This document shows, piece by piece, positions 37,505 through 61,603 of a stretch of DNA of 64,000 nt (within the stretch, counting starts at the first letter, position 1; every line of letters begins with the position of its first letter). Under the pieces are notes generated by a model. That model did no database searches and was not told where the DNA came from. It was given only the letters and a program-made list of their open reading frames with translations. Both the position numbers and the translations under genes were made by a program. The stretch comes from Promethearchaeia archaeon (GTDB lineage: Archaea > Asgardarchaeota > Lokiarchaeia > Sigyniarchaeales > SOKP01), in contig JBATUM010000185.1 of assembly GCA_049671145.1 (NCBI GenBank), forward strand, positions 1,828 through 65,827. The letters run 5' to 3'.

Positions 37505-37590
37505 TTTTTATTCTATTTTCTTTAATTCCTCTACTTATTAAATATAATTAAAAGATAATCTAAAAATAGTAAAAAATTGGAATAAAAAAT

Positions 37591-38985: not shown

Positions 38986-39024
38986 TTTTGACTCTATTTT
39001 TTATTTAAAATTCCTCTACTTTTT

Positions 39025-39078
39025 AAATAATTTCTATAGACATTTTCTCCCTCCCCCATGGTGCCCCTGTTGAAAAAG
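39025..39078 (+). repeat. GC-rich direct repeat, copy A
   Basis: AAATAATTTCTA...CTCCCTCCCCCATGGTGCCCCTGTTGAAAAAG. Its partner at 46563-46628 shares the AAATA(A/G)TTTCTA, CTCCCTCCCC, TGGTGCCCC and TGAAAAAG blocks. Confidence 0.6.
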
Positions 39079-41250: not shown

Positions 41251-41294
41251 TATCATCAATTCACAGACCAACATATCATCAATTCACAGACCAA
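41251..41294 (+). repeat. Tandem duplication (two 21-nt copies, 23-nt period)
   Basis: TATCATCAATTCACAGACCAA occurs at 41251-41271 and again at 41274-41294. The duplication lies exactly at the 5' break of the immunity-gene remnant. Confidence 0.85.
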
Positions 41295-41296
41295 AT

Positions 41297-41536
41297 GTAA
41301 TTCAAGGTATTTACATAAATAATTATGAAATACCAATAAAATGGAAAGACTACGATAAATTTTATTCAGAAAGATCTATTGCAATAAAAACTAATGAGGG
41401 TTTTTTTTTATTAGACGCATCTGATGTTAAAAAAATGTCAATTCGGGGAAAAAAAGAAATTAAATTAAAGGAAGGTCAAAAAATTACTCTTTATGTTGGG
41501 AGGTTTGATCTACATGCTTGGTATCCACTAGAATAA
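41297..41536 (+). pseudogene. 5'-truncated remnant of a third AWHPIE-family immunity gene
   Basis: It translates to VIQGIYINNYEIPIKWKDYDKFYSERSIAIKTNEGFFLLDASDVKKMSIRGKKEIKLKEGQKITLYVGRFDLHAWYPLE*. This is collinear with the C-terminal halves of the two intact paralogs. No in-frame start lies upstream. Confidence 0.7.
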
Positions 41537-41866
41537 TTATTAATTTTTAATTCAATTCCATTCACATTATAATCTCTCTATTTAAAGGTAAACTAATTTA
41601 GCCAAGCCGGCTTAATAGGGTAATATCTTAGAAGCTAGTTGTATAAAAAATATCTATGTTTCTGATCTTAATGTAGAGTAGTTAAACCAACTCCTGGTTA
41701 AATACGAGTTTCATAATGATTTGAATGAACTCTTAACCATCAATGCAGAGCGTCAAATCCTGCATAATATCCAAGATTTTTCCAGAGCATTTTTACACAT
41801 GTATGAGTTGTAACCTTAATATTAATTTTAAGTCCGCAGGGAGATAACCTTGATGGATTCTTAGAT

Positions 41867-44800: not shown

Positions 44801-45658
44801 TTTAGTAAAGACTTAAGTAAAAAAATGATTACTTATCTGTATAAAGAATTTATTTACCCTAGTGGCAAATCTACACATCCAGTTAGTTCAGATTATTTTA
44901 TAGACCAAGTACTCATCTTGGGTGAAGTTCTCAAAAGCTTGAATAATTATTACGAGCCAGAGACATTTAAGGAAAATCTAAAAGCTCTTCTCAATAGCAG
45001 AGAGTTTCGTTCTTATAATAATTTAGGTGGTTCTCAAAAGCAAGAATTCATTAATAACCTAATTAAAAATGTATGGAAAAATTCATATGAAAGTTTATGT
45101 TTAGAATTACTTTACAAAGAATTCACATACCAAGGTAAGGAAGCATTATATTACAAACCAGAAGATGTGCTTATTGAGAAAACGACTTGTACAACTGTTT
45201 TAAAAAGTCCTGGAGATAACTTTTTCCAACCTACTGAAATTTATCTAACTTTTGGTGAACATGAATTTAAATTTGATAAACGTGCTGGAAATGGTATAAT
45301 ACATATTTTTGCAGGACATTGGGCTGATTTCGCTAGATTACATCCTGATCTTAATACTCCTGAAGCCATAGCAAAATTCATATTTGAACTAATTAAGTCT
45401 CAGAAGGGAGTCGTTATGGAAGATGGAGGTAAAATAGTATATGCATTCCGATTTAAAGGGGAACAAAAAGTCCGTTATGTAGAACTTTTAGTTGATGATG
45501 GAGGACCAATGGGTCCAGAAGGTAGATTACATACAGCATATCCAGTAGATCTTACAAAATCCAAATATAAAGATAAATATATAGAATACAGAAATTATTT
45601 TATAAGACATTCAAATCTAATTCAAAATGATATAGACTTAAAAAATATACTAGTATAA
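41867..45658 (+). CDS. 5'-truncated paralog (orphan module) of the giant gene's 3' end, with a distinct CT3 domain
   Basis: The 1,263-codon ORF has only a TTG start. Its first about 500 aa are collinear with giant residues encoded at about 32520-34290. Decayed, frame-broken homology continues upstream (41700-41866). The C-terminus carries a third variant of the CT domain. Confidence 0.7.
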   Translation: MLWDNLLSMGASDPDVFVALDFDDLNLDYFLMTSELPAYNFRPGYSYPNTNNLDNVYHTYAVNTLGYVEYLVQHSSNNQFDTIRPVCKDGRPQYEFVERDSYDKVLPQSVLYQPIVLDQYRFSQLRPQLGHLIVNVQCRPHDYNNSIGINPYVMNAVEADVYKAKIPLFQHEFDYPVQNVYIDIVKSNPEYENGILSNLNLKYLAQDIYVNESYYAFEQGQLYFTAPIETLITQKYPHYRTALKDIWRIEGMNSKVYYRLHVYFDVFVPDLTEETHRLALAQASSYAIMDYFNQYTYAEVTANMISEIAYTETVTFWSTIISAPMMMFGSYLVEGLEEGIARAGVQMALTTLTAPIKEVFQEIIMDGFIEAFAENFADIMGWSDDVGYWLSALATSGRETLLGPLGKLTWGKIREMTKLDLEIKNTVKLMQQATQSQDTDTANKLRQTLEDLYRQQSEARQQKEQEKKTWKKLLASDFFKGVLMTIPSAFIGGFNIFSFMGMQNMLSGTLSHINIKTFSKIRAVQQASRRGKLQHILDEYGIEGDVLSRNIESNLKQPTDIDGEALHNLFKEQNEEDLPGVKNTIVFNPNPKAAKTVEKINIPNKFEEIRLANWVDELTKDYKFEDKKKISDQVSKTTNNVEETELKSDIMIGDLYEGLFYQFNKIRIGNLYHEFYATGTLQTDGKKVSKLLYSKQLITDAIIMLSSTKYKGVPIIIDQEINFIVLEAIIAKIKEGHTITQLERIIMDIGIFIEGRYDIIGKVNSASDFNEKFFEKTKRNVKKLGILKVIGRSMFGKLKPGAKVAYEIKNEGEVYNVDDIIVFYRDGVKIVHRVEYIFESNGEIFYVTEGVNSDTNPYVDSDLVSNDQVIGRVTEMSEQDLSALIEMAEQGKVPSIEGLGMSNALEKVYQSLYKTSKSLRNMRDNPIGLTREQLLDFVINKISEINVEAFTDIDKVKEARIRILTTCYEMIERNIYSWFSKDLSKKMITYLYKEFIYPSGKSTHPVSSDYFIDQVLILGEVLKSLNNYYEPETFKENLKALLNSREFRSYNNLGGSQKQEFINNLIKNVWKNSYESLCLELLYKEFTYQGKEALYYKPEDVLIEKTTCTTVLKSPGDNFFQPTEIYLTFGEHEFKFDKRAGNGIIHIFAGHWADFARLHPDLNTPEAIAKFIFELIKSQKGVVMEDGGKIVYAFRFKGEQKVRYVELLVDDGGPMGPEGRLHTAYPVDLTKSKYKDKYIEYRNYFIRHSNLIQNDIDLKNILV
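44237..44494 (+). other. Sec11/S26B signal-peptidase-like (S24/S26 fold) domain embedded in the orphan module
   Basis: The boxes occur in the canonical order: GRSMFG (box B, Ser), DDIIVF (box C), KIVHRV (box D, His), VTEGVNSDTNPYVD (box E, diverged from TKGDNNxxxD), then QVIGRV. Confidence 0.55.
45265..45655 (+). other. CT3 putative toxin domain (divergent member of the CT1/CT2 family)
   Basis: FKFDKRAGNGIIHIFAGHW...PEAIAKFIFELIKSQ...EGRLHTAYPVD aligns with CT1 FWLELGNQFSGFEHILYD...REDIATLILNTIKTQ...SNGYIISAYPQ. Confidence 0.5.
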
Positions 45659-45728: not shown

Positions 45729-46568
45729 ATGGGTTTTTATAAAATAGACGGAAAAAAATATGAGGTAAAAAAAGATTATATCAATCTATATGAATGTGGA
45801 TTAAATTTAATTCGTGATATTATTGGTTTAGACCAACTGGTAAATTTAAGAGCTTTATTGTTAGAACGTAACAATATTAGTGATATCGAAGGATTGGAAA
45901 ACCTTATAAATTTAAAAATTTTAAACTTAGAGGATAATCATATTAATGAGATTAAGGGATTAGAGAAACTTACAAATTTAGAGACATTGAAATTGAATAT
46001 TAATTCAATAAGTAAAATAGAACAAATTGAAAATTTAACGAATTTAATAGAATTAAACTTAAGTTCAAACAATATTAAAATAATAGAAGGACTTACGAAA
46101 TTGATAAAATTAGAAAAATTATCTTTGGCAAATAATCAAATTTCCAAAATTTCTGGTTTAAATTCGTTAAAAAATCTCTCTCTATTAACTTTAGATTCTA
46201 ATAAAATCACAAAAATAGAGAATCTACCCATATCAAAAAAATTAGAATCTTTAAGTTTAGGTGATAATAAAATCACTGAAATTTCTGGCTTAGATAATTA
46301 CAGGAATTTGATACTTTTATATTTAAGAAATAATAAGATTAGTGAAATTACGGGTTTAAAATCTCAGAATAATTTGGAATATCTTGATTTAAGCAATAAT
46401 AATATTAAAGAGTTAAAGGGATTAGAGAGGATGACAAAATTAACTCAATTAGAATTTGGTGGAAATTTAATAGATCCTAATTTGATTGAAAAATTAGGTG
46501 GTTTAGATAGAAGTGGATGTGCATTACAACCTCAAAAGTTTGTTGAATATTGTAGAAAAAATAAATAG
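45729..46568 (+). CDS. Leucine-rich repeat protein (about ten 22-aa LRRs, SDS22/internalin-like)
   Basis: The unit LxxLxxLxLxxNxIxxIxGLxx repeats regularly, for example LENLINLKILNLEDNHINEIKG and LEKLTNLETLKLNINSISKIEQ. No TM segment or signal peptide is visible. Confidence 0.85.
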   Translation: MGFYKIDGKKYEVKKDYINLYECGLNLIRDIIGLDQLVNLRALLLERNNISDIEGLENLINLKILNLEDNHINEIKGLEKLTNLETLKLNINSISKIEQIENLTNLIELNLSSNNIKIIEGLTKLIKLEKLSLANNQISKISGLNSLKNLSLLTLDSNKITKIENLPISKKLESLSLGDNKITEISGLDNYRNLILLYLRNNKISEITGLKSQNNLEYLDLSNNNIKELKGLERMTKLTQLEFGGNLIDPNLIEKLGGLDRSGCALQPQKFVEYCRKNK

Positions 46569-46725: not shown

Positions 46726-47316
46726 ATGACTAAAAATATTGATTTACATACCCAACTTGTATTGAAGTTATTAAATGGGTTAAATTCTAAACCGATAGAT
46801 GGAAAAATAAAATTCCAAAAGATAGCTTTCTTGGTTTTAAGGAATTTTGAAGAGATATTTGAGTTTTTTGATTTCAAAGCTCATAGATTTGGTCCTTATA
46901 GTGAATCTTTGAATTATACTTTAGAAGAAGTTAAGAACAAGGAAGAAGCACAAATAGAGAAAGATACAATAAAAATTACTGAAAATGGGAGAAAAAAATT
47001 AAATGAATTAGAATCCATTACAGAGTTAAGCGAGAAAGAGAAGAAAAATAAGGAATTAATTGAAAAAGCAATTGAAAATATAAAGGAAGACTTTATCAAT
47101 TTCACCAGTGATGAGATGTTAGCTTTTATTTATAAAAGTTATCCTAACTACATAAGTGATTCTATTGTAGCCGATAAAATGGACTATGAGAAAATATTTC
47201 TTGAGTTATATGATAAAGGTGAATTAGGAATATCAAAAATTGCTGAGTTAATGGACTGGGAGTTTCAAGATGCATACGATTTTATAAAAAAGAACACCAA
47301 GTTACAAATCTTATGA
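46726..47316 (+). CDS. Putative antitoxin (C-terminal UPF0175-like HTH; N-terminal Panacea/DUF4065-like region)
   Basis: The C-terminus GELGISKIAELMDWEFQDAYDFIKKN resembles the UPF0175 HTH that partners with PIN toxins. The N-terminus KFQKIAFLVL...FKAHRFGPYSESL resembles the Panacea pattern. The stop overlaps the PIN gene start (ATGA). Confidence 0.45.
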   Translation: MTKNIDLHTQLVLKLLNGLNSKPIDGKIKFQKIAFLVLRNFEEIFEFFDFKAHRFGPYSESLNYTLEEVKNKEEAQIEKDTIKITENGRKKLNELESITELSEKEKKNKELIEKAIENIKEDFINFTSDEMLAFIYKSYPNYISDSIVADKMDYEKIFLELYDKGELGISKIAELMDWEFQDAYDFIKKNTKLQIL

Positions 47317-47804
47317 TAGTAACAAAACTCTTTGATACAGTCGTTTTAATAAATATTCTCCAAGATATTGATATTGAAGATATATTACTCAACTGGGGTG
47401 AAAATCCTAGCTATGACCAATGGACTTCTTATGAGGTAAACCTAGAAGTTCAGAAGAAAGCAAGAATCAAGCTTGATAAATTGATTACTGATAATGTTAT
47501 AAGAATCTTCAATCAAGCACCTCAGAATAATCTTAAACAAATTCAAGGTTTTAACCCTAAATTATCAATAGCTGACTGTTCTCTAATATATCACTATACA
47601 AGGGTAAATAACGTTATATGTTTAACAAATGATTTAGACCTTAGAAAGTATTTCATTAAAAACAATTTTAGGTTATCAGGGACTAATGGGATTTATTTAA
47701 AAGTACTAAAAGATGGTAATTTTCCCAAAGATATCATTGAAGAAAAATTTAAAGATTTAAAAAACGACTCTCGGGTGTTTCCGCAACCTGAAATTAATAA
47801 CTAA
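47313..47804 (+). CDS. PIN-domain toxin (VapC/DUF3368-like)
   Basis: An N-terminal Asp is present in LFDTVVLINIL. Later acidic positions occur in IADCSLIYHY and ICLTNDLDLRKY (the T-x-D motif). The 4-nt start/stop overlap with the upstream gene is typical of TA pairs. Confidence 0.6.
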   Translation: MIVTKLFDTVVLINILQDIDIEDILLNWGENPSYDQWTSYEVNLEVQKKARIKLDKLITDNVIRIFNQAPQNNLKQIQGFNPKLSIADCSLIYHYTRVNNVICLTNDLDLRKYFIKNNFRLSGTNGIYLKVLKDGNFPKDIIEEKFKDLKNDSRVFPQPEINN

Positions 47805-50077: not shown

Positions 50078-50133
50078 CTATAGGTTTTTGGAACTTTTTC
50101 TTTAAATACTTTGATGATTTGATAGAGTCAATA

Positions 50134-50358
50134 ATGAATTACATTTTTATCAATGGTTATAAATTGAAGGGCATAAATGATTTAGTGTTTGAGTGTTTAA
50201 AACCCGAACTGGAATATATTTGAGGAAAAATTCAGAGTAGTTTAGAGAATGTTACAGATGAGACAAAAGAATATCAATCTGACATTATAGAGTCCTATAC
50301 TAAAGTGATTCATGAAATGCTGAAATACACTGAAGGTAAAGATTTTTTTAAGAGATAA
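50134..50358 (+). pseudogene. Small ORF interrupted by an in-frame TGA (50221-50223)
   Basis: MNYIFINGYKLKGINDLVFECLKPELEYI-TGA-GKIQSSLENVTDETKEYQSDIIESYTKVIHEMLKYTEGKDFFKR* ends 8 nt before the ATG at 50366. Confidence 0.25.
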
Positions 50359-50365
50359 ACCCATC

Positions 50366-50707
50366 ATGTCTGAAATAAAAATTTTTGAAAGAGCATTAGA
50401 AGATGTGTTATTAAATAAAACAGAACTTAATAATCTTAAATCTATTATTAAGGATGTAGCATCTGGAAAAGGCAGCGATAAATTTTTACGAGAGCAAATC
50501 ATAAAAAATCGTATAAACATTATAAAGGATCTTTTAAAGCTTTTTCCCTTTTTTACAACATCGGTAAGAGATACAAACAAGATTTCCATGCCAATTAATA
50601 CTTTACAAGAAGAGTTGCAGGAAAAAAATGCATTTTTAGAACAAGTTGGGCAAAGAATAAATAATATTTATAATAGACTTAAAAAACAAGACCACACTGC
50701 CCCCTAA
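50366..50707 (+). CDS. Small predicted coiled-coil protein (113 aa)
   Basis: ATG-initiated ORF with heptad-like charged sequence (LQEELQEKNAFLEQVGQRINNIYNRLKK). It lies upstream of the ATPase pair on the same strand. Confidence 0.45.
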   Translation: MSEIKIFERALEDVLLNKTELNNLKSIIKDVASGKGSDKFLREQIIKNRINIIKDLLKLFPFFTTSVRDTNKISMPINTLQEELQEKNAFLEQVGQRINNIYNRLKKQDHTAP

Positions 50708-50892
50708 ATAATGATTACTCAAAACACCAATTTTTAGAATTTTATTCAAAAACCTTCACATTACTTAGTTCTTCTTTTGGCCAATGATTTGTTTCAATCC
50801 AATTATCATCAACAAACTAACAGGTTGGAAATATCAAAACAATTTTTCATTTAAATATAATCAAAATTAATGAATTAAAAATAAGAATATAG

Positions 50893-53800
50893 TTGTTTAA
50901 TATGAGTTTAAAATATAGCGATTATCTGAAAAACAAAAAAAACGATAAAAAATATAATGAATCTCGTTTTGAAGATGAGGGTGATAATTCTGATTATTTA
51001 GATATTTGGACGGTAAATCCTTTTTATAAAGATATTAATACTAAAAAGTTAAGAGCCAAAATAGGCTTTTTTGCAATTTTAATCTTAGCAACATCGTTTC
51101 TAATTCTATCTCTCTTTTCTAAAATTAATTACTTAATAGGAGCAATAGCTTTCCTTCTAGTATTGCTATTTTATGAAAATATCTTTAACTTTTTCAACAA
51201 CCTCTTTACAAGCGTTCAGGGATTGAAGTGGATCAATCCATATAAAGATTTGATATTCTGGACAAATGATCCTGAAACCCTTGTAATGGTAAATAAGAAA
51301 AATTCGTTGGTATTTGCAATTCAAATATTTGAAGTTAAAACCTTGCCTGAGAATGTCCATCCTACTTTAAATCATTTTCTTAAAGCACTAAACAATGCAA
51401 ATATTAAATACTCGTATCAGGTCGTACAAACTCCATTGATGTATCAAAAACTCAAAATAAAGAAAATTAGTAATAATGAAACTTCAATTTATTTTAGTGT
51501 ATTTGATCAGAGAAAAGGCATTTTAACTAAAAGCAAAATTGATAATTTAGTTCAAACTGTACGGTTTAACTCAAAAATATTCAAGTCTCATCTTAGTTCG
51601 AATTTTCATCATACACAAATCTCCTTATTAAGCGGGCTTAATTTAATTAACGCGATTAGAGCAATTTTTTGTGGAATTAATCTTGATAAAATAGAGTTTA
51701 GAGACCTTAACAATGAGCATTCTAAAAACAATGTTCGTTACATAGTAAAATTAATAGTTATAGCTCTTTTTATAGGATTAGTATCTTATTTTTCAACGTA
51801 TTTTTCACTTCCTTGGATATTCATACTCTTATTAGATATTATAATCATAATGGCGCTCATTTTCATTTGGTGGGAAGATTTGTTATATTCTATTTCAAGG
51901 GTTTGTTTTCTTAATAATATAAACGTAAAATCTGTTGATCCCTTCATAGATATTAATTTTTATCGAATGAAAGGGTGTAGAGATACGCTTTTTCTTCTCT
52001 TAGATGATCACTTATTAATTGGACTCAAACAATTTAGCTTAAAACATGCGATTCAGAAATGCTTTATATATTCCGAGAAACTTTTCCGAGAGCTGAATAA
52101 TCAGAAAATAACTTTTATTTATACTCTTCAGGCTATACCTTTATTACCTAGCGATTTTAGCAAAAAATGTTCTAAATTTCTAAATGAAAAAGGATATTCA
52201 GATATGAAAAGAATATTTGGGGAAACAGTGCTTGGTGGAACATCTACTCCTCCAGCTAAAAATGCCCCCCTAGTGTTTAAAAATTGGTTAAACATGAGAT
52301 CAGGGATTTGGAACACAATTTTAACAGTGTCAGTATTATCATATCATTTTATTAATCCAAGAGATATTAGCCATTTTGAGGATGTAGAGGAAGACCTAAT
52401 AAGTAAGTCTGAAATTATGCTAAGGGCATTTGAGGACAATTTTCTCAATCTTAAATTAACTCAATTGAGAAATCATAAACTAATTAATGGATATCGATTT
52501 GTGTCTCTTAAAAATAGTTTATTCAAGGCAAAGAACACAGGTTTACCTTGTGTATATTTCCAAGGAAAGACCTTAATATATCTAAATGCTATTTCAAATG
52601 AATTTAAAAAAGGATTAGAAACCAAAATCGCTGCAGAATTTAATACTCCCCTCCATTTGAAAAATGATATTATTATAGGAGAAACCATCAATACTGAGTT
52701 CTTAGAAAAAGAAGGTGAATTAGGCTTTAAACTTGAGCAGGTAAAGCAACTACTAATTACTAATGGGCTTTCTGAGCAAAGAGAACACACAATGATGAAG
52801 ATTGTAACGGAACTTATAAAGATAGGAATACCATGTGTGATATTTGATTATTCAGGAAAGTGGTCGAAACTAATCAGTAATTTTAAAAATACGTACTTAG
52901 AAGAGACCTTTTTATATTTCAAATTAGGACGCTCATTTAGCCTGTATTTAATAGATTCAGAAGAAGATTATGATAAACATAACTTAGAATATTTAAACTT
53001 ATTTTACGATGTATTTGCGTTAGCCTTTAAGGAACAAAGAAAAAGTGTTGATCTTCTCAAAGAATCTGTAACAAAAAATAAGGAAATTGATATAAGCACA
53101 CTTGCTTTAGAGCATGAAATGGAAGAACAACTCTTTAAAAAAAATAATTATAATAGTTTGCTTGAGCTTTTACAGGGATTTATTGATTGGAGAGCTTTAT
53201 TTTCATCTAGATCGTTAAAATTTGAACAAGAAATTAAACCTATTGATTTTCTTAAAATTGATAAAACGATCATCATTGATTTATCTTTATTAGAAGAATT
53301 GAAACAAAAAAATTTCAGTACCTTTGTTCTCTTATCCAAATTCATACATCATCTTAGAAATGTAAATGATTTTCACAGAAAAGTTATTATTATTCCTCAT
53401 ATCGATCTTTTTTTTGATGCATATTACATTGATAATTACAATATGGTTGATTATGGTACAATCGAAAAGTTTTTAGATCCATTTCTTGACAATGGATTTG
53501 GGCTAATTTGTTCAGCAAATCAAATACGATATCTGCATTCTCATGTGTTTACCTACTTTCCAAATATCATTACATTTAAAGCTACGGATCCTCGAGATAT
53601 TGCGGTGTTAAAAAACACAATAAATTTGCAAGAATTACAAGGAACAGGTTATTATAGTTCAAAACGAAATAATACATACCAAATTGATTATCTTATGAAT
53701 TTGCGAAAAAATGAAGTCATTGTAAAAAGATCTGATATTAATCAACCATTTCCGGGAGAAATTAATTACGATCAACTCCAATTAACCCCTCTCCTTTCAC

Positions 53801-54717
53801 AGGATACAATAGCGGTTTATATGGAAAGGCAAGGATATGCTTATAAAGATCATGAGAGACGTATCTTAGAAAGAGCTAAAGAGACACTTTTTGAAAAAGA
53901 TTTTGGAATCTATTCGGAATTTATTGATGATATAATTAAGTTTTTGGCTAATATAAGTGCCGTTGATAAGATTGGGGGGAATTATGAGCATAAACTTAAA
54001 GAAGAACTTCTAAAATATATTCATTCAAACGCAATACATAAAACGAAAGATAAGAAGAAAATTAAGCAATTAAGAGATGCCCTTTTCCGCATTCTTAAGC
54101 AACAAAGTTATTTAGTTGAGAGTCACCCACTTCAAGCGAGTGGAGGGCAAACTACACGCACTTGCTATAAAGTCGGACAAAAATATCATAACGCACTTAA
54201 GGATTATTATAGCTCAAAAAAAAGGTTAGCCCCTAATATTTCTGTTGATGTAATTGAAAAGAATATAAAGAATAATTCTAAGGGGCTTAATATGTTAAAA
54301 GGGGTATCTTCAAATGATACAATCAGAAGTGATAAATTTAAAGATATAGTATTTAGAGAATTGGGAAGTTTTATATGGCAATTATTTAAATTGCATGACG
54401 CAAATGAGAATAAACACTACGAAACATCATTAAAAGTTGGTAAAGATTTGATCTTTAATTATCTTACATCATTATACAAGATATTTCTTAAAATGAACGG
54501 AGGTCAAACTCCTGAAAGCATAAAACTTCCCTCATTTATTACGGCTCTGACTTCTTATAAAGTTATTCCATTTACTATGAATATGATTAAAGATTATTGT
54601 CAAAAATCAAAGCAATTATCCCAAAATGCAGAAAATCCCGAAAAGAATGCTCATGAATTAGAAGATTTAATCATGGAATTCTACAAGACTACTAGAATGC
54701 ATTTTATAACAAATTGA
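50893..54717 (+). CDS. Membrane-anchored HerA/VirB4-like protein with degenerate Walker A and B (pseudo-ATPase)
   Basis: There are two TM hairpins (about 51058-51175 and 51733-51875). The C-terminal half is collinear with the next gene, but its P-loop reads TNGLSEQREHT against MSGLTGVGKTT, and its Walker B reads VIIIPHIDLF against VIMMDEVGSI. Shared blocks are IIIDLSLL/VYIDLSGF and NIITFKATDPRDI/IKILFRTDKEDL. The ATG at 50902 may be the true start. Confidence 0.6.
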   Translation: MFNMSLKYSDYLKNKKNDKKYNESRFEDEGDNSDYLDIWTVNPFYKDINTKKLRAKIGFFAILILATSFLILSLFSKINYLIGAIAFLLVLLFYENIFNFFNNLFTSVQGLKWINPYKDLIFWTNDPETLVMVNKKNSLVFAIQIFEVKTLPENVHPTLNHFLKALNNANIKYSYQVVQTPLMYQKLKIKKISNNETSIYFSVFDQRKGILTKSKIDNLVQTVRFNSKIFKSHLSSNFHHTQISLLSGLNLINAIRAIFCGINLDKIEFRDLNNEHSKNNVRYIVKLIVIALFIGLVSYFSTYFSLPWIFILLLDIIIIMALIFIWWEDLLYSISRVCFLNNINVKSVDPFIDINFYRMKGCRDTLFLLLDDHLLIGLKQFSLKHAIQKCFIYSEKLFRELNNQKITFIYTLQAIPLLPSDFSKKCSKFLNEKGYSDMKRIFGETVLGGTSTPPAKNAPLVFKNWLNMRSGIWNTILTVSVLSYHFINPRDISHFEDVEEDLISKSEIMLRAFEDNFLNLKLTQLRNHKLINGYRFVSLKNSLFKAKNTGLPCVYFQGKTLIYLNAISNEFKKGLETKIAAEFNTPLHLKNDIIIGETINTEFLEKEGELGFKLEQVKQLLITNGLSEQREHTMMKIVTELIKIGIPCVIFDYSGKWSKLISNFKNTYLEETFLYFKLGRSFSLYLIDSEEDYDKHNLEYLNLFYDVFALAFKEQRKSVDLLKESVTKNKEIDISTLALEHEMEEQLFKKNNYNSLLELLQGFIDWRALFSSRSLKFEQEIKPIDFLKIDKTIIIDLSLLEELKQKNFSTFVLLSKFIHHLRNVNDFHRKVIIIPHIDLFFDAYYIDNYNMVDYGTIEKFLDPFLDNGFGLICSANQIRYLHSHVFTYFPNIITFKATDPRDIAVLKNTINLQELQGTGYYSSKRNNTYQIDYLMNLRKNEVIVKRSDINQPFPGEINYDQLQLTPLLSQDTIAVYMERQGYAYKDHERRILERAKETLFEKDFGIYSEFIDDIIKFLANISAVDKIGGNYEHKLKEELLKYIHSNAIHKTKDKKKIKQLRDALFRILKQQSYLVESHPLQASGGQTTRTCYKVGQKYHNALKDYYSSKKRLAPNISVDVIEKNIKNNSKGLNMLKGVSSNDTIRSDKFKDIVFRELGSFIWQLFKLHDANENKHYETSLKVGKDLIFNYLTSLYKIFLKMNGGQTPESIKLPSFITALTSYKVIPFTMNMIKDYCQKSKQLSQNAENPEKNAHELEDLIMEFYKTTRMHFITN

Positions 54718-54825
54718 AATCAAGTTTTTTATTTAAATATCCCTAAAATATTAACTTTTAAAACAAAATTCGAGGTGGTTTAGATCGAACCAGAATTTTG
54801 GCATGGAGTAGTAAAAATTACTCAA

Positions 54826-56772
54826 GTGCCTAATATGAAGAACAGTAGTGAAAATAATAACTCATGGCTCTGTAATCCTTTTGGAGATGCCAGAGTTTAT
54901 ACTACAAGGATTACGCTAGACGAGGAATTTTCGTGGGAATTCTTTTTTAAAGAAGATTCTAAAAAGGAAGCTTATCAAAGTGCTGAGTCGTTTCTCCTTT
55001 ATTTAAAAGAGGTTTATCCAGGGTTAGCAGGACAAGTGAAAGTCAGAGGAATAAATTATATGGACTTACAAACAAAGAAGCAGATCTTTGAACTTATTTT
55101 ACCCAATCCTGTATTTGCGAAAAAAATCAACTTAATCAAAAAAATAATGAATTTATTTCCAGTGAGCAAAGAGTTTAAAAAGAGTTTTTTTATCTCATGG
55201 CAGGAAGATGATTCTGTCATTAAAGAACTGGAAAATTTTGCGAAACTAAAGCAACATATTACTTTAGATGAGAATTATAAAGCAAAAGTATTCTTTCTAA
55301 TTGAGCCAAAATTCAATAATAATTCAGAAATAAGTAACCAGGTAATTGAAGAAATAAAAGAATATATGGCGATGGATATACGCAATGCGGATAATGAAAA
55401 TGCATCTATAAGCGACGCACCTCCGGATACATGGAGATATATCTTAGAGGAGATGGTGTTTTGGAAGAATATTTTAGATTGCGATACAGGCAGGTTTTAT
55501 CGACGCGTGGAAGGAGGAATCCCTCCAGAAATGATACCTGCTTTTATTAGTCCTAAAGTAGTTGATTTTAGTTTTAATCATGATATTCCTTTAGATAAAG
55601 CATTTACTATTAAAAATGAGAAGATTGGGTTTAATTCTGACTTTAGAAACAATAGTTCTCGAATTCTTTTAGGATATTATATCAAACATGGGGTTATTAC
55701 TGAGAATCCTGTTTATCTACACTTAGAAGATTTAGTCCAACATATATTTATGTCAGGATTAACTGGTGTAGGGAAAACTACTATAGAATCCCAATTAAAA
55801 CAACGTATAAAGAAGACAGGTAATCCCTGTGGAGTGTTAACGATCAAATTGTTGAAAGGAAATGAATCTTTTATGTTTAGCTCAGAGATTATGCTCAAAA
55901 AAGGAGATCCCAAATTACGAGTACCTTATATCATGGAAGGAGAAGAAATTGACCAAATTATAGAACAAGTTGCTGGATACTCTGTTGCTTCAGTGGGATT
56001 AAAAAACGTTGTTGTTTCAATTATGGAAATCGTATTAACCCATGAATATGAAAATAAAGGTAAATTTCCAGCAAAAATCAAGCAAGCTTTTGCACGCGTT
56101 CATTTACATCTGGAGGAGAATCCTTACCATAAAAAATTTCAAACTAACATTTTGAAAGCTTTAGAAAATCGGGTAATGAAACTTTTATCAAATCCAATTC
56201 TGGAGAAAATTTTGGAAACGGGACCAATCCCAGAGTGGTTTATTGAATGGCAAAATGGTAAAGATGTGTATATAGATTTATCAGGATTTAAGAAAAGTGC
56301 GCAAAGACTGCTGGTTCACGCGATCTTCCAATTAATTCGTACTTGTTCCCCTGAATTAGATGCAAAAAAACTGATGCATAGTAAAGATCCTTCTCAGAAG
56401 CTTAAAAATGTCATAATGATGGATGAAGTAGGCTCTATTTTAGGAAAACCAAAGTATCAAAGTTATGATGATGACGAAACTATAACGAAGCATTACTTAG
56501 AAATTGTGTTTGAAGAATTTTTATCCGCCTTCAGAAGTAGAGGAATTGGTATAATCCTTGGGGATCATATGCCTTCCAGATTATTTGAAGGAGTTTATAA
56601 ACTTCCTAGCATAAAAATATTGTTTAGAACAGATAAAGAGGATTTACAAAAGTTTGGGTTAGATGTAGAGGATATCATGGTTATTGACACTCTAAAAAAT
56701 CGGTTTGCATTCATTAAAGATGGTGTTAATTCAAGAAGATTTCTATTCTATACGACTGACTACGAATTATAA
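54826..56772 (+). CDS. HerA/FtsK/VirB4-superfamily ATPase (intact Walker A/B)
   Basis: Walker A is GLTGVGKTT and Walker B is NVIMMDEVGS. The family-typical YIDLSGF block and the C-terminal GIGIILGDHMPS...IKILFRTD block are present. The ATG at 54835 is a possible alternative to the GTG start. Confidence 0.7.
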   Translation: MPNMKNSSENNNSWLCNPFGDARVYTTRITLDEEFSWEFFFKEDSKKEAYQSAESFLLYLKEVYPGLAGQVKVRGINYMDLQTKKQIFELILPNPVFAKKINLIKKIMNLFPVSKEFKKSFFISWQEDDSVIKELENFAKLKQHITLDENYKAKVFFLIEPKFNNNSEISNQVIEEIKEYMAMDIRNADNENASISDAPPDTWRYILEEMVFWKNILDCDTGRFYRRVEGGIPPEMIPAFISPKVVDFSFNHDIPLDKAFTIKNEKIGFNSDFRNNSSRILLGYYIKHGVITENPVYLHLEDLVQHIFMSGLTGVGKTTIESQLKQRIKKTGNPCGVLTIKLLKGNESFMFSSEIMLKKGDPKLRVPYIMEGEEIDQIIEQVAGYSVASVGLKNVVVSIMEIVLTHEYENKGKFPAKIKQAFARVHLHLEENPYHKKFQTNILKALENRVMKLLSNPILEKILETGPIPEWFIEWQNGKDVYIDLSGFKKSAQRLLVHAIFQLIRTCSPELDAKKLMHSKDPSQKLKNVIMMDEVGSILGKPKYQSYDDDETITKHYLEIVFEEFLSAFRSRGIGIILGDHMPSRLFEGVYKLPSIKILFRTDKEDLQKFGLDVEDIMVIDTLKNRFAFIKDGVNSRRFLFYTTDYEL

Positions 56773-56803
56773 TTATAGGAGGGAGGGAATCTGAATTAGT
56801 GAA

Positions 56804-59800
56804 GTGGGGGATGAGTGGGATGAATATGAAAAAGATGAAGACACGAATCCTGAGAAAGAAAAGGATTTAGACGAGTTAGAGGAAGGATATGACCCATTTT
56901 CGTTGAAATCAAAGGTTATGGAAAATGAAGAAGAACAAGAGTATGATCCCTTTTCTTTGCATAGAGATGAGTGTGATACAGAAACAACTGAAGATTACGA
57001 TCCTTTTTCCTTAACTGAGGGCGATTCTGCGAATGAAATGGATGAAGATTATGATCCATTTTCTTTACATAGAGATGAAGTAAGTGAGGAACAAACTGGA
57101 GAAGAAGACATTACTCAAAAAGAAGAACGAGAGGAAATATGTGAAAATATTGATTCCCAATCTACTCTATTAGTGCAAAGAGAGTCTAATAAAGATGGAG
57201 AAACTTGTGATGAACGAGCAGAGGAAAATAGTGAGCAAGAGAAAAATCAAACTGAAGATACTGAAGAAATAATAATGCCTGATCCAGAAAAATATGAACA
57301 AGACCAAGAGACAATTTATGATCCAGCTGAGATTGATTTTATTAGAGATATGGAAGAACTAGGGAGTATTTTAAAAGAATCTGAAGAAAGTAGAGGCATT
57401 TCTGAAGAGGAATTAGAGGAATATGATAATACAGGTTTTAATGCAGAGCAAGCATATCAAGAAATAAAAGAAAAAAATAGAGAAAAAGAATTAGAGCAAA
57501 AGGAATTGCCTTTAGAGGAACATGATCTCCAAAATACGGTTGAGAAGGCGGAGGAGCAACATAATGAAAATTTAAAAGAGAGAGAATGCAAGGAAGAAGA
57601 TGAATTACCAAAGGAAATAACCGATTCGGAGGAATTTCAATACCTTTGGGAAGAATATGATAGACTTGAACAAGAAGGAACGAACCTCGAAGAGATTTCT
57701 GAATTAATGCATGAAGCGGAAGAGACGTATCAAATGTTAAAAAATTATGAGGAAGAATTAGAAGAAATCTATGAACGACAAGAAAAGCAAGGTTTAGAAT
57801 CAATTGACCATAAGAACGAGGAAAAACCAGAAGATTATAGAATAGAAGTTGAGAGTGTATATGAAGCAGAATATTTTATTGATGCTGAAATACAATTACA
57901 AACAGAAGGTAAATCATCAGAAGAAATAACCAATGAAATGCAAAAAGTTGAAGAAAAATATGATTTTGAGGAAAAAGTGGAAAAACTTCATGAAAAACAG
58001 AGAAAGGATAAATATAATTCAGTTGATCATGAGAATGAAGAGGATGAAGATGACCAAAGGGAGGAGATTGACAGAGTAGATGTGATAGAAGGTGTTGTAG
58101 AAGCTGAAGAAGAATTCCATAAGCAAGGAAAATCTCAAAAAGAAATAGATGAGAAGACTGAAAGAATTGCCAATAAATTTTATAAAAATGAAATAGAAGA
58201 ACAGCTACAAAATAGACCAGAACAAGAGGTTAATAAGGAACTTGGAACTGAAGTTACTGAACCTGAATTTGCTTTAGAAGAACGAGATCAGATCAACCAC
58301 ACCTCTTTTGATAATAATGATCAAAAAATTGAAATTTATCCAGAGATGGAAAATAGAGAAATATTAGAAGAAATCGATATAGAAGTAGATGACTCCACAA
58401 ATGATAGAGGATCGTATCAAGAAAGTATGGAAAAAGCTATTGAAAAAGAAAACAAACCAGAAACCGAAGAATCACAGGAAAAAGAATATGAACTCCTCCA
58501 ACAATTATATCACCAAGATACAGGGAGAAGACCTCAATATAGAGGAAGAGAAACAAAAGAGTATAGTCAATGGTTAGAACATCAAAAGTTAAAAACTAAG
58601 AAAGCCAAAGAAAAAGAAGTGAAAGAACAAGAAGAGGAGAGATGGAAAGAGATACTTAAAGATTGGATAGAAGAATCTAAAGATGAAATGCCCAGCTCTG
58701 AACTTAAATTAGTTTTAAAAGAGATAATTCAAAAGTTCGAAATATTAGAAGAGTTATATAGAGAAGGTGTAAATTTAACTGAAATCGAAAGAGATCATTG
58801 GCTCTCTAAATTAATAAAGCTTCAAAACAAATATCCAATTCATTTACATTTATATCAAAATATCTACGGATTTAAAGTATATGTTCAAGAGAGTCATCCT
58901 TGGGATATTAATCGAATAAAAAACAAATTTCTTAGACATTTGGTTAAAAAATATAAAATTTTAAAACAAAACTTAAAAAATATTAATTTCGGCAATATAA
59001 AAAGTTCAGAATTAAGAAGCATTATTAAAAAATATCATAAATTTACGTTAAATAAATATTTAAAAGTTAAATATCCAAATAGAGGCTTTCAAATAACCAA
59101 ACAATTTTTCAAATGGTTAAAGACTGACGGAAACGCTGCTAAGATGGATAAAATAACTAATATTTGTAAAGAAATTAATACTAATCAAGAACTATATAAC
59201 TTTTTTATTTATCTGGTTATAAATTCATTATTATCTCTTAAAAAAATCTCTGAAAAATTTAAATTTCTCGGTTTTAATATCCACTCATCCGCTTTGGGAA
59301 AATATGCTAAAAAAATTTTAGGAGCAGAATATAAAATTCGATTTCCAAGTGGCAAGAAGAGAATTCAATCATTTAATAACAAAAATTTATGTTTTCACAA
59401 TCTCTTAAATAAAGTTTTATTACAGAAATTTTATGAATTTCGGGAAGAATTTCCTAAAAGTTATCCAAATACAGGTAGGATTATAGGTGATAAGTTTATT
59501 TTATGGATTAAGAAAAATTTGAAAAATTTTGATGAAAAGAGATATTTACTTAAATTGATTGAAAGAGTTAATGGAAATAGAGAGATTACTCAATATATAA
59601 TAAGTTTAATTTACCATTCCGAATTAACTCAATTGGATATTGTAAATGAGCTTTGGAAGAAAAACTTAAAAATTTCCCGAGAAGCAATAAGAAATATTGC
59701 GGAACAGAATTTGTCTTATGATAAATACAAAGAAAGATTTTCAAGATATAAAAAATCTTATAATTATGATGAGCAATTATCATCAAATAGCTCTCTTTAT

Positions 59801-61603
59801 CAAAGTTTATTAAATCCAGTATTACATACCTCATTTAAAAATTATTACCAAACTATTGGGAAGTACGCTAATATAGGAAGAAAAATTTCTAATTCCTTTA
59901 AATCATGGATTAAAAGATCAAAATATAAACTTAATAAGCGTCAAAGAATCCTTAATTTAATTGAAAACATCAATAAAAATAATGAAGTTGAAAGATTTAT
60001 CATCAATATTATTCGAAATTCAATAGATAATTCAAAAGAAAGAACTTCTTTAGGCGAAATTTCGAGAATGTTTAAAAACTTTGGCTTAGATGTCTCTCGA
60101 ATGACTGTAACTAGAATCGCATTGGAAAAAGTATTTAATAATGATCTAGAGATATTCCAAAAATATTTTAAACCTGGACAAGATGAAGAATTTAAAGATA
60201 TTGATCTTCAAAACTTATTCTTTGACGATATAACTAATTTTGGAGTAGTAAGTAAATTTAAAAGCTTTAGAAGAATAACGAGAGAGGAAGGAAGAGAGTT
60301 ATATCCGAATATAGGTACAAAGATTTCACCATATTTTATTGAATGGATAAAAAAAAATATTAAAAATGATGATGAAGAGAAGCAAAAATTAATTCAATTA
60401 TGCGAAAAAATAGACGAAGAGTCGCAAATTTTACAACTAATCCTTCACAGAACATTATCTTCAGATTTAAATATATCTGAAATCGCGCTTGAAATGGAAA
60501 ATCTAGGACTTAATGGTCAACGGGGTACCATTTCAAAAAACGTATTAAAGTATATATATAATAATGATAAAGAAAATCTAAACTTAAGATTTCCATCAGA
60601 TTTAAGTTCAGAATTGGGAACTTGGACTCATATATGCATTAGAGATTTATTATCTAAGCATTTTATATCCATTAATTATAAATATTATTCAGAAGTACAA
60701 ATATTTCCTCCTAGTAATAAAAAGGCAGATGGGATTTTACTAAATATTAGACAAAATAGATATTTGCATGAAAAGTTAAATCTTTCTAAAGATGGAAATA
60801 GATTTAAAAACAAAATGGGAATTAAAAATAATATCATTCAAAAAATTAAAGCTATTCAATTTGATTTTACAAGTGATATTTCTGATGAAAATATTATAGA
60901 CAAATGCATAAAATATCAAAATCCAAATATTTTATTGATTATCGTATGTACAAACTGGAAAAATAAAAAGGCTAATAGAAGTTTGCCTCCTCTCTCGAAT
61001 AAAGTTAAGAATAAAGATAATCTTTGTATTATTAGTGCTAAATTATTCACTGAATTTATAGGATTGAATCAAACTTTAAAACAAGAATTCCTCAATATTA
61101 TTTCTAAAAGCAATAAATCAAATTTAACTTTCTTAAAACAATATCATAAGAAAAATTATCCAAATCTTACTAATTCTGGAACTATAGAATTGAAAAATGA
61201 TATTGGCTCCAAATTATTTAATAGAGTTTTTAAAGATCTTGAAATAAGCGAGGTAAATGAACTCATTGATACCTCAAAACTTGCATCTAAATTTGTTTCA
61301 TTTTGTTTGGAAAATATAAATTCCCAATCGAATCAGCATGAATTAAAATCTCATATAATATCAAAAGGTGGATATAAAGGAGGATACTTCAAATTTACAA
61401 CTAAAAATTTATATGAATTTAAGAAATTTGTAAAAACAAAAAATCTAAATTTAAACTATTTGTCTAAGATTTTGGCAAATATACATGGAATTCGTAATAT
61501 TTTTTATAAAAAGATATTAAGATATAATTCAACACTTAAGAGAAGGACAGAACAAAGAGTAATTTTGATTAAGAAATCTTTTTTAGAAAGTCAAATACAC
61601 TGA
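56804..61603 (+). CDS. Large (1,599 aa) acidic/coiled-coil protein with four HTH-like modules and a possible nuclease-like end
   Basis: The GTG start is preceded by TAGGAGGGAGGG. The N-terminus has four (E/D)YDPFSL motifs, followed by a long E/K-rich region with about 70-aa repeats, four about 125-aa repeats each ending ...RFPS/KPG, and a C-terminal alpha/beta region. Confidence 0.75.
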   Translation: MGDEWDEYEKDEDTNPEKEKDLDELEEGYDPFSLKSKVMENEEEQEYDPFSLHRDECDTETTEDYDPFSLTEGDSANEMDEDYDPFSLHRDEVSEEQTGEEDITQKEEREEICENIDSQSTLLVQRESNKDGETCDERAEENSEQEKNQTEDTEEIIMPDPEKYEQDQETIYDPAEIDFIRDMEELGSILKESEESRGISEEELEEYDNTGFNAEQAYQEIKEKNREKELEQKELPLEEHDLQNTVEKAEEQHNENLKERECKEEDELPKEITDSEEFQYLWEEYDRLEQEGTNLEEISELMHEAEETYQMLKNYEEELEEIYERQEKQGLESIDHKNEEKPEDYRIEVESVYEAEYFIDAEIQLQTEGKSSEEITNEMQKVEEKYDFEEKVEKLHEKQRKDKYNSVDHENEEDEDDQREEIDRVDVIEGVVEAEEEFHKQGKSQKEIDEKTERIANKFYKNEIEEQLQNRPEQEVNKELGTEVTEPEFALEERDQINHTSFDNNDQKIEIYPEMENREILEEIDIEVDDSTNDRGSYQESMEKAIEKENKPETEESQEKEYELLQQLYHQDTGRRPQYRGRETKEYSQWLEHQKLKTKKAKEKEVKEQEEERWKEILKDWIEESKDEMPSSELKLVLKEIIQKFEILEELYREGVNLTEIERDHWLSKLIKLQNKYPIHLHLYQNIYGFKVYVQESHPWDINRIKNKFLRHLVKKYKILKQNLKNINFGNIKSSELRSIIKKYHKFTLNKYLKVKYPNRGFQITKQFFKWLKTDGNAAKMDKITNICKEINTNQELYNFFIYLVINSLLSLKKISEKFKFLGFNIHSSALGKYAKKILGAEYKIRFPSGKKRIQSFNNKNLCFHNLLNKVLLQKFYEFREEFPKSYPNTGRIIGDKFILWIKKNLKNFDEKRYLLKLIERVNGNREITQYIISLIYHSELTQLDIVNELWKKNLKISREAIRNIAEQNLSYDKYKERFSRYKKSYNYDEQLSSNSSLYQSLLNPVLHTSFKNYYQTIGKYANIGRKISNSFKSWIKRSKYKLNKRQRILNLIENINKNNEVERFIINIIRNSIDNSKERTSLGEISRMFKNFGLDVSRMTVTRIALEKVFNNDLEIFQKYFKPGQDEEFKDIDLQNLFFDDITNFGVVSKFKSFRRITREEGRELYPNIGTKISPYFIEWIKKNIKNDDEEKQKLIQLCEKIDEESQILQLILHRTLSSDLNISEIALEMENLGLNGQRGTISKNVLKYIYNNDKENLNLRFPSDLSSELGTWTHICIRDLLSKHFISINYKYYSEVQIFPPSNKKADGILLNIRQNRYLHEKLNLSKDGNRFKNKMGIKNNIIQKIKAIQFDFTSDISDENIIDKCIKYQNPNILLIIVCTNWKNKKANRSLPPLSNKVKNKDNLCIISAKLFTEFIGLNQTLKQEFLNIISKSNKSNLTFLKQYHKKNYPNLTNSGTIELKNDIGSKLFNRVFKDLEISEVNELIDTSKLASKFVSFCLENINSQSNQHELKSHIISKGGYKGGYFKFTTKNLYEFKKFVKTKNLNLNYLSKILANIHGIRNIFYKKILRYNSTLKRRTEQRVILIKKSFLESQIH
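56887..57067 (+). repeat. Four YDPFSL short linear motifs in an acidic context
   Basis: GYDPFSL, EYDPFSL, DYDPFSL and DYDPFSL are spaced 12-13 aa apart. The second and fourth are followed by HRDE. Confidence 0.9.
59069..60600 (+). repeat. Four tandem modules of about 125 aa with a helix-turn-helix-like core
   Basis: Each module begins (K/S/L)Y(P/A)N-x-G-x-x-I-x-x-x-F-x-x-W(I/L)K and contains a segment such as LSLKKISEKFKFLGFNIHSSALGKYAKKIL, LTQLDIVNELWKKNLKISREAIRNIAEQNL, SLGEISRMFKNFGLDVSRMTVTRIALEKVF or NISEIALEMENLGLNGQRGTISKNVLKYIY. Confidence 0.6.

Follow-up and report, generated by a model that had tools for sequence, protein, structure and literature searches.

What does a close-packed block of four genes do in the genome of an Asgard archaeon when its products resemble parts of a membrane-bound DNA-transfer machine? 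The block (50366-61603) lies on the + strand of a stretch of 64,000 nucleotides, here called the window, from contig JBATUM010000185.1 of Promethearchaeia archaeon (assembly GCA_049671145.1). It encodes a small helical protein of 113 aa (50366-50707), a transmembrane (TM) protein of 1274 aa that we describe below as a VirB4-like, membrane-anchored pseudo-ATPase (50893-54717), a P-loop ATPase of 648 aa related to HerA, VirB4 and TrwB (54826-56772), and a large acidic protein of 1599 aa (56804-61603). An earlier note on this DNA had offered two explanations: that the block is a conjugation-like or Ced/Ted-like DNA transfer system of an integrated element, or that it is a motor for the assembly or export of a giant protein, or of its toxin, encoded upstream.

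Our best reading is that the module is neither an integrated element nor an exporter of the giant protein. We tentatively favour, at somewhat less than even confidence, a chromosomal, Asgard-specific membrane apparatus derived from type IV secretion systems (T4SS) and HerA-type ATPases, which would handle DNA at the cytoplasmic membrane and work like Ced and Ted. The kind of system proposed in the first explanation is thus supported, because a VirB4-like fold occurs together with recurring DNA-binding and nuclease features (a winged helix-turn-helix (wHTH)-like segment, helix-turn-helix (HTH)-like repeats, and LAGLIDADG, PD-(D/E)xK and helix-hairpin-helix (HhH) domains), while its proposed setting is not, as the hallmarks of an integrated element were missing.

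The proteins of the module

The TM protein contains four TM segments arranged as two hairpins, which a Kyte-Doolittle scan placed at aa 53-100 (51049-51192) and aa 280-334 (51730-51894), corresponding to model helices 2-60 and 224-291. An AlphaFold2 (AF2) model of aa 50-1249, built from 20 homologues, is of moderate quality, with a predicted local distance difference test score (pLDDT) of 67 and a predicted template modelling score of 0.44. It shows each hairpin followed by an α/β domain, next a P-loop-like domain and last a helical C-terminus with a winged-helix-like element. The top matches of this model in a Foldseek search of the PDB were TrwK/VirB4 of the R388 T4SS (E = 1.3e-13 to 8e-11 over ~950-1020 columns), in alignments that take in both the N-terminal and the C-terminal VirB4 domain. 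HerA ranked second (E = 9e-8), about six orders of magnitude behind, and defence-type HerA complexes ranked lower; the VirB4 C-terminal domain 4ag5 gave a template modelling score of 0.55. The likeness is not visible at the sequence level: the protein had no match in Pfam, NCBIfam, PADLOC or PHROG, and a PDB profile search returned nothing relevant. Within the limits of a model of moderate quality, the TM protein appears to have the VirB4 fold, with both VirB4 domains.

The P-loop domain of the TM protein (52732-53889) is degenerate. At the Walker A position it reads ITNGLSEQREHT (52756-52791), where the family has ITNG-x4-RE, or GG-x4-R in distant members, and none of the 14 members sampled, down to 21% identity, has GK[ST] or a Walker A lysine. 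IIIDLS follows at 53269-53286, and the Walker B position carries IIIPHIDLFFD (53386-53418; family pattern IIIPHxD). An hhalign comparison aligned the stretch from DLS to Walker B weakly to the ATPase family (E = 0.005, probability 6.7%). Lacking the Walker A lysine and the Walker B acidic pair, the protein is predicted to have no functional NTP-binding site. The earlier description of a TM-anchored pseudo-ATPase was therefore right, and the VirB4 fold and the absence of GK[ST] from all 14 members allow us to sharpen it to a VirB4-like pseudo-ATPase. The remaining C-terminal region (53890-54714; …YLVESHP…RTCYKV…) is helical in the model's secondary structure, with a helix-helix-helix-strand-strand pattern at model residues 983-1060 that looks like a wHTH segment, and with conserved residues Y1073, L1074, H1078 and P1079.

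Directly downstream, the ATPase has an intact Walker A motif (GLTGVGKT, aa 311-318; 55756-55779) and Walker B motif (MMDEVG, aa 531-536; 56416-56433), and G311, G314, G316, K317, D533 and E534 are invariant in 23 homologues. Its match to Pfam DUF87 lies just above the cut-off (E = 4.8e-5; score 24.0 against 23.2), and the PADLOC profiles HerA (6.4e-11) and mad8 (2e-6) match it in generic P-loop regions. An AF2 model (pLDDT 62, with the N-terminal domain at aa 24-200 of low confidence) matched HerA at E = 3.6e-14, TrwK/VirB4 at 8e-12, SIR2-HerA at ~1e-11 and TrwB at 3e-10 in the PDB, with template modelling scores of 0.65 to 4ag5 and 0.53 to TrwB. Because the HerA, VirB4 and TrwB matches are almost equal, we place the protein in the HerA/VirB4/VirD4 clade of the FtsK/HerA superfamily of P-loop ATPases and assign it to no single branch. 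An active HerA/VirB4-like ATPase, as the earlier note had it, is confirmed at the level of motifs and fold. HerA sensu stricto is recognized by its operon partner NurA (with Mre11 and Rad50 in archaea) and by an N-terminal HAS-barrel; profile scans found no NurA, Mre11 or Rad50 in the window, so the ATPase does not have the partners of HerA in this narrow sense. The window ATPase has no TM segment.

The large protein has three parts. Its N-terminal region (aa 1-545; 56804-58438) is acidic, with Asp and Glu making up 33-41% of aa 1-500 and 27% of aa 501-600, and is probably disordered. It carries the peptide YDPFSL four times with an 18-aa period (56888-56905, 56942-56959, 56996-57013 and 57050-57067). 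Since there is no tandem repeat at the DNA level under this array, what is conserved is the peptide and not a recent duplication. The pattern [FYW][DEN]P occurs 5 times in the window's acidic region against 0.4 expected, and 80 times across the family against 12.1 expected from shuffled sequences. Homologues carry arrays of their own (DDPFDEYPD seven times, YNPFECPDY three times, FDPxExYDW and SFDPNDD) and a second repeat type, PELVPEW..PEELAG..IP.I.VPE. The acidic docking motifs of the earlier note are thus real and enriched family-wide, and they may act in docking. Related peptides occur in the two neighbouring proteins: a conserved N-terminal peptide of the TM protein, DIWTVNPFYKD (51001-51033; family consensus YLDIWxxNPSYKDIN), and one of the ATPase, SWLCNPF (54862-54882; consensus SWLxNPFGDxRVYGT), share a W..NP[FS] core similar to the large protein's (D/N)PF motifs. 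Both kinds of peptide could conceivably bind one common receptor.

A central helical domain follows (aa 556-723; 58469-58972; Y..(E)TG(K/R)RP.Y.G..TKGF..WL…). It is the sole part common to all homologues of the large protein, which span 1000-1700 aa, and it has no Pfam or PDB relative. We took as chance the likeness of its ETGKRPIY to TGEKPY, the linker between C2H2 zinc fingers (KLF4, E = 0.16). The third part, a basic C-terminal half, holds four tandem repeats, themselves basic, of ~135 aa (59012-60673; YPN.G..I...F..WIKK … L..EI…G…S), which occur only in the window protein and one homologue (P0049). The earlier note had called them HTH arrays. The repeats are significant, with pairwise z scores of 10-18 against shuffles, but the HTH label derives from a weak profile match to the sigma-54 RpoN DNA-binding domain (E = 0.037), and they are possibly HTH modules.

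The last ~310 aa (60674-61603) had been described as a nuclease-like end, which our data do not bear out for the window protein: this region has no Pfam or PDB sequence match, and its candidate motif, ADGILL…IQFDFT, reads D...DxT in place of D...(D/E)xK, with the lysine absent. Homologues elsewhere do have nuclease domains. Their C-terminal halves behave as shuffled cassettes, being unrelated even where central domains are 65-85% identical, and one homologue shares its C-terminus with a distant lineage. LAGLIDADG_3 is found in the C-termini of at least 8 homologues or loci, one homologue (in locus L030) has a weak PDDEXK_1 match with an HIDLIA…IIDYK motif, and another (L002) has a putative HNH-like motif, visible in the sequence alone (ICHNCHTVIHYKR). 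Proteins encoded 3' of two distant-clade ATPases (L015, 12033-14159; L016, 8658-11324) end in a full intein-type unit, Intein_splicing plus LAGLIDADG_3, followed by only ~10 residues, an arrangement more like a Hint autoprocessing domain at the C-terminus than an inserted intein. The large protein has neither a signal peptide nor a TM segment.

Linkage, distribution and chromosomal setting

The four genes of the module are separated by 186, 109 and 32 nt. The NCBI models start the TM gene at the ATG at 50902 (1271 aa) and the ATPase gene at the ATG at 54835 (645 aa), which are probably the true starts, and the three large proteins are 100% identical to WBH31_09145, WBH31_09150 and WBH31_09155. 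The same-strand, closely spaced arrangement described in the earlier note holds for these four open reading frames (ORFs), but the left end it had drawn, at 50134, falls in an ORF of 29-34 aa (50119-50223). Because that ORF has no support, only one of the "small coiled-coil proteins" is real, the 113-aa protein. This protein has sub-threshold coiled-coil-type Pfam matches alone and no TM segment, and its homologues lie directly 3' of the TM gene in two other loci (L029 and L031; in the latter 28% identity, E = 3e-10, phmmer 6e-11).

Gene linkage was assessed by clustering ORFs over 31 loci; WIN denotes the window locus, and handles between L001 and L032 denote related loci. The module recurs in ~30 loci, whose named sources are without exception Asgard metagenome-assembled genomes (MAGs). 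The ATPase gene is followed directly by that of the large protein in ~16 loci, and the TM gene lies ≤5 kb upstream in WIN, L002/3, L008, L024, L026/27 and L030. What is inserted between TM gene and ATPase differs by genome (L002 4273-6541; L026 14190-15482; L030 8208-11270; L008 7996-9591) and includes uracil-DNA glycosylase-like, HNH_5 and NosD/β-helix proteins and small ORFs; NosD-like β-helix proteins occur near the module in six loci.

An index of 5.8 billion proteins contained 25 ATPase homologues; 19 ATPase loci lie in GTDB genomes, all of them MAGs labelled Asgard or simply archaeal, and in four of these genomes there are two divergent copies. The TM family has only 192 matches at E ≤ 1e-3 among 1.84 billion representatives. 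All of its named members are Asgard, which holds for GC-rich forms, for short ones (830-850 aa) and for members at 21-28% identity, so that by sequence the family is Asgard-only yet broad inside Asgard. The 22 close homologues are all ~1270 aa, and this length and 35-62% identity are kept across Asgard lineages. In two loci (L008 3978-7874 and L024 823-4721) the TM gene is in two ORFs with different break points (645+648 aa and 816+462 aa), which may reflect a frameshift, decay or a true division of the gene.

Several further genes accompany the module. C3, a 230-aa polytopic membrane protein with an HExxH motif and a weak DUF3267 zincin match alone, is encoded directly 5' of the ATPase in six loci and directly 3' of the TM gene in L032, and it thereby ties the two genes together. 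A standalone CDC48_N protein of 170 aa is encoded next to the module in several genomes (L026 9463-9990, L028 384-896 and L012 128-640), preceding the TM gene in L026-28, and is a candidate for an adaptor that binds the acidic motif peptides. The TM operon of L029, L031 and one JGI contig opens with an HhH membrane protein (PF14520, 1e-11), followed by genes for a four-TM and a two-TM protein, and in four contigs members of this TM subfamily have a gene for a Hel308-like helicase a few kb 5' of them. The HhH proteins of L029 and L031 (623-690 aa) had been considered as divergent ATPases; they do not match the ATPase hidden Markov model (HMM) and have no Walker A motif. A distant ATPase clade has a fused N-terminal domain with 5-6 TM segments, which no HMM match relates to C3 and which is analogous only.

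Nothing in these data points to a mobile element. Among window ORFs of ≥100 aa between 37 and 63.4 kb, Pfam and NCBIfam scans found no integrase or relaxase family; the window contains no tRNA and no att-like direct repeats flanking the module, whose GC content is unremarkable relative to its flanks. As the window ends 2.4 kb past the block, an element boundary could lie further out. No relatives of the module were found on IMG/VR viral contigs or, by tblastn, on PLSDB plasmids, and no module protein matched a PHROG. The Asgard-wide distribution argues for a cellular system. We rejected an origin from a plasmid or integrative and conjugative element for lack of evidence, and likewise a viral origin or a packaging ATPase: BFVD packaging ATPases scored far below VirB4-like phage proteins, and the sole PDB sequence hint toward a viral ATPase was STIV B204 (E = 0.001).

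A possible membrane apparatus and its rivals

From these observations we infer the assembly, substrate and direction of the apparatus as follows. The TM protein would enter the membrane by its two hairpins, its VirB4-like N- and C-terminal domains forming a non-catalytic oligomeric scaffold or gate. The soluble HerA/VirB4/TrwB-like ATPase would power the system, docked on the scaffold or alternating with it. The 1599-aa protein would be the substrate-selecting, DNA-processing subunit: through its multivalent aromatic-acidic-Pro peptides it may dock on the ATPase ring or on an adaptor, the conserved central domain may anchor it, and its exchangeable basic C-terminus may bind DNA and, in many homologues, cut it (HTH-like repeats in the window protein; LAGLIDADG, PD-(D/E)xK or HNH-like modules in others). 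The 113-aa protein may serve as a scaffold accessory. Elsewhere the set would be completed by the polytopic HExxH protein, the ATPase-fused polytopic domain and the HhH membrane protein, none of which accompanies the window copy. In favour of this reading count the VirB4 match along the whole TM protein, the adjacency of ATPase and large protein with a TM gene close by in several loci, the C3 link, the fused TM domain of the distant ATPase clade (a feature of FtsK and type IV coupling proteins too), and a TM family that is confined to Asgard but widespread there, keeps synteny with a Hel308-like helicase in four contigs and is missing from the viral and plasmid collections.

Among known systems, VirB4/TrwK of bacterial T4SS (R388; PDB 7o42, 8rtd), VirB3-VirB4 fusions included, is structurally closest to the TM protein, whose model aligns over both TrwK domains (E = 1e-13). 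VirB3 provides membrane association for VirB4, and the TM protein is similarly membrane-associated via short helical hairpins and partnered with a second ATPase of the same superfamily. Unlike VirB4/TrwK, it has two hairpin-plus-α/β units and an extra helical, winged-helix-like C-terminal region, and it lacks both sequence-level similarity (Pfam, PDB) and the Walker A lysine. No VirB6, VirB8 or VirB2 homologues were detected.

A pairing of a degenerate VirB4 with an active ATPase has a precedent in the Rickettsiales rvh T4SS, which combines an active VirB4a with a degenerate VirB4b. Rickettsia VirB4b carries substitutions in its NTP cleft and was proposed to act as a non-powering gate or scaffold beside the active ATPase, and an Agrobacterium VirB4 active-site mutant still stabilised its partners (PMC2653234). 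VirB4b, however, is a recent and recognisable paralogue within a canonical T4SS, whereas the Asgard TM protein belongs to an old separate family with no canonical T4SS around it.

The closest functional parallel may be Ced of Sulfolobales and Ted of Thermoproteales, which import DNA. These are chromosomal archaeal T4SS derivatives with a VirB4/HerA-like ATPase and membrane proteins, and their hallmarks are a channel of VirB6 type (CedA/TedA), a pilin of VirB2 type (CedA1/TedC) and an active CedB/TedB ATPase (PMC9905601). Like them, the Asgard module is chromosomal, lineage-specific and diverged past recognisable sequence similarity. It differs in its inactive VirB4-like subunit and separate soluble ATPase, and Ced and Ted have no counterpart of the large acidic protein. 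Because neither channel nor pilin was found for it, the module cannot be filed under Ced/Ted or T4SS, even if it works like them.

Several observations weigh against the proposed DNA-handling apparatus. Its VirB4-like subunit is catalytically dead, whereas CedB, TedB and VirB4 are active ATPases. We found no small two-TM, pilin-like (VirB2-like) ORF within 49-62 kb and no VirB6-like channel in the window, and the polytopic proteins of related loci, C3 (230 aa) and Y (4 TM), have no Pfam match to VirB6. Linkage is imperfect, as many ATPase loci lack a TM gene over a distance of 10 kb and the TM gene stands without a nearby ATPase in three loci (L028, L029 and L031). Both AF2 models are moderate (pLDDT 67 and 62), which makes their inter-domain geometry unreliable, and the module is known from sequences and predicted models alone. 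Finally, the shuffled nuclease C-termini, together with a prokaryotic Argonaute (pAgo) and NurA in L001 and an MmeI-type restriction-modification enzyme in L028, fit a role in defence equally well.

Defence is the main rival, which we consider unlikely. Here the block would be a membrane-anchored HerA-plus-effector system against viruses or plasmids, in which a HerA-like hexamer joins with the large protein, whose variable C-terminal nuclease or DNA-binding modules attack invading DNA, and the VirB4-like protein places or activates the complex where DNA enters the cell. The ATPase lies tightly beside a protein with rapidly swapped, cassette-like C-termini, several of them nucleases, and its model matches HerA-effector complexes (HerA-NurA, SIR2-HerA/Nezha, DUF4297-HerA and TdpAB) at E = 1e-14 to 1e-9, fitting the SIR2-HerA and DUF4297-HerA defence complexes nearly as well as HerA-NurA. 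The PADLOC HerA and mad8 matches, the presence of several paralogous copies in some genomes and defence-type neighbours point the same way; beyond those in L001 (where the NurA gene is 10 kb from the ATPase, beside that for pAgo) and L028, these neighbours include HNH_5 in L030 and, in the window itself, a gene of SocA/Panacea type. The PADLOC matches, however, fall in generic P-loop regions, and among PADLOC models of HerA-based defence systems only the ATPase finds a match, with none for the TM, large or small proteins. Unlike known HerA effectors, the partner is 1000-1700 aa long, with a long acidic motif region and a novel central domain, and is linked to a VirB4-like membrane protein. We know of no HerA defence system that features a VirB4-like fold with TM hairpins or an HhH membrane protein, and the constant length and identity of the TM family, one subfamily of which is syntenic with a housekeeping helicase, are unlike typical defence-island turnover.

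Quite improbable, in our view, is that a T4SS-like or type VII secretion system-like machine exports the large protein as a polymorphic effector, with a conserved targeting region and swappable C-terminal nuclease toxins aimed at competitors. A conserved N-terminal and central part joined to shuffled C-termini (nucleases, and the Hint/intein-like ends of L015 and L016) does resemble polymorphic toxins. The large protein is also partnered by a VirB4-like component and a coupling-type ATPase, and its gene lies directly 3' of that for the ATPase. Yet no conserved small immunity-like gene lies 3' of the large-protein gene, which in the window is followed by housekeeping genes on the opposite strand. 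The large protein lacks a signal peptide and TM segment, in the window copy DNA-binding-like repeats but no toxin domain could be recognised, and LAGLIDADG domains are, to our knowledge, not typical of toxins.

We give little credence to a housekeeping chromosome machine for segregation, dimer resolution or DNA tethering, with the TM protein as anchor or DNA platform and the HerA-like ATPase as pump. In FtsK/SpoIIIE and the type IV coupling proteins TrwB/VirD4, membrane segments at the N-terminus are joined to a RecA-like motor, and FtsK adds a winged-helix γ domain at its C-terminus. With TM segments at its N-terminus, a P-loop-like domain and a winged-helix-like C-terminus, the TM protein parallels FtsK/SpoIIIE in layout, and the distant ATPase clade has its TM domain fused to the motor, as FtsK and the coupling proteins do. 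The family is also Asgard-wide, apparently vertical, syntenic with a Hel308-like repair helicase and absent from the viral and plasmid collections (IMG/VR, PLSDB). The best structural match of the TM protein is nevertheless VirB4 and not FtsK; the window ATPase has no TM segment, the TM-bearing protein being the inactive one, and no all-α domain of the coupling-protein type was recognised. Divergent paralogues within a genome, variable contexts, insertions between TM gene and ATPase, split TM genes (L008, L024) and hypervariable C-termini are likewise atypical of an essential system.

A dedicated assembly or export motor for the 12,290-aa giant protein (ORF 101-36973) or its toxin is very improbable: proximity alone speaks for it, the module starting ~13.4 kb downstream on the same strand (50366 against 36973), while the interval holds ten unrelated ORFs (three on the opposite strand), neither the giant locus nor the 37-50 kb region, nor the rest of the window outside the module, contains a gene with a homologue in the 31 module loci, and in nearly all loci the module has no adjacent giant gene, contrary to the co-occurrence that the earlier note had thought worth checking. 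The tempting link to the neighbouring giant gene is thus removed.

Should the apparatus move DNA at or across the membrane, Asgard archaea would have a dedicated means of exchanging DNA between cells or with the environment. Asgard archaea are the closest known archaeal relatives of eukaryotes, and such a route would bear on gene flow in a lineage related to the eukaryotic ancestor. A bolder version, possible but doubtful, is an ancient, lineage-wide Asgard DNA-exchange machine derived from a T4SS, with a dead VirB4-like scaffold, a HerA-like motor, recruitment through DPF/NPF-like motifs and swappable DNA-recognition and nuclease cassettes; this would be a third, independent archaeal domestication of conjugation machinery after Ced and Ted. 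Whatever its function, three uncharacterised, Asgard-restricted protein families belong together. The VirB4-like family, kept at ~1270 aa despite its lost catalytic lysine, would be a clear case of an ATPase fold retained as a scaffold, and the large-protein family joins motif-rich acidic, probably disordered regions with cassette-like swapping of DNA-binding and nuclease ends. A full-text literature search found no published description of such an Asgard module. The combination of subunits, the family-wide catalytic loss in a VirB4-like protein and the motif-rich large protein are new; the ATPase superfamily and the likeness to T4SS-derived systems were known.

Neighbouring genes and repeats

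Just 3' of the block, on the opposite strand, are the genes for archaetidylinositol-phosphate synthase and TrmY. On the other side, the giant ORF had no Pfam match at E ≤ 0.001 in three 1500-aa samples taken from its N-terminus, middle and C-terminus, and the "toxin" label attached to this locus is for that reason unsupported by these scans.

Between the giant ORF and the module, a 63-nt segment occurs three times (37457-37519, 38938-39000 and 41489-41551; 63-78% identity), each time at the 3' end of a small ORF or shortly beyond it, and is followed in two cases by a second shared 21-mer (37524-37544 and 39009-39029). These look like repeated cassette ends, for example of orphan modules belonging to the giant-gene locus. 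At 41251-41294, between genes for a 490-aa and a 1263-aa protein, lies a perfect direct repeat of 21 nt (TATCATCAATTCACAGACCAA) whose two copies are 23 nt apart. Residues 787-888 of the 1263-aa protein (41867-45658) resemble archaeal type I signal peptidase/SipW (TIGR02228, 5.7e-10, below cut-off) and also S24-type phage repressors (PHROG 4); the protein has no predicted TM segment. A leucine-rich repeat protein is encoded at 45729-46568, just upstream of the SocA/Panacea-like gene (46726-47316; Pfam 0.0025; PHROG 14939, 9e-9). The latter overlaps the next ORF (47313-47804) by 4 nt, and the two may form a toxin-antitoxin pair.

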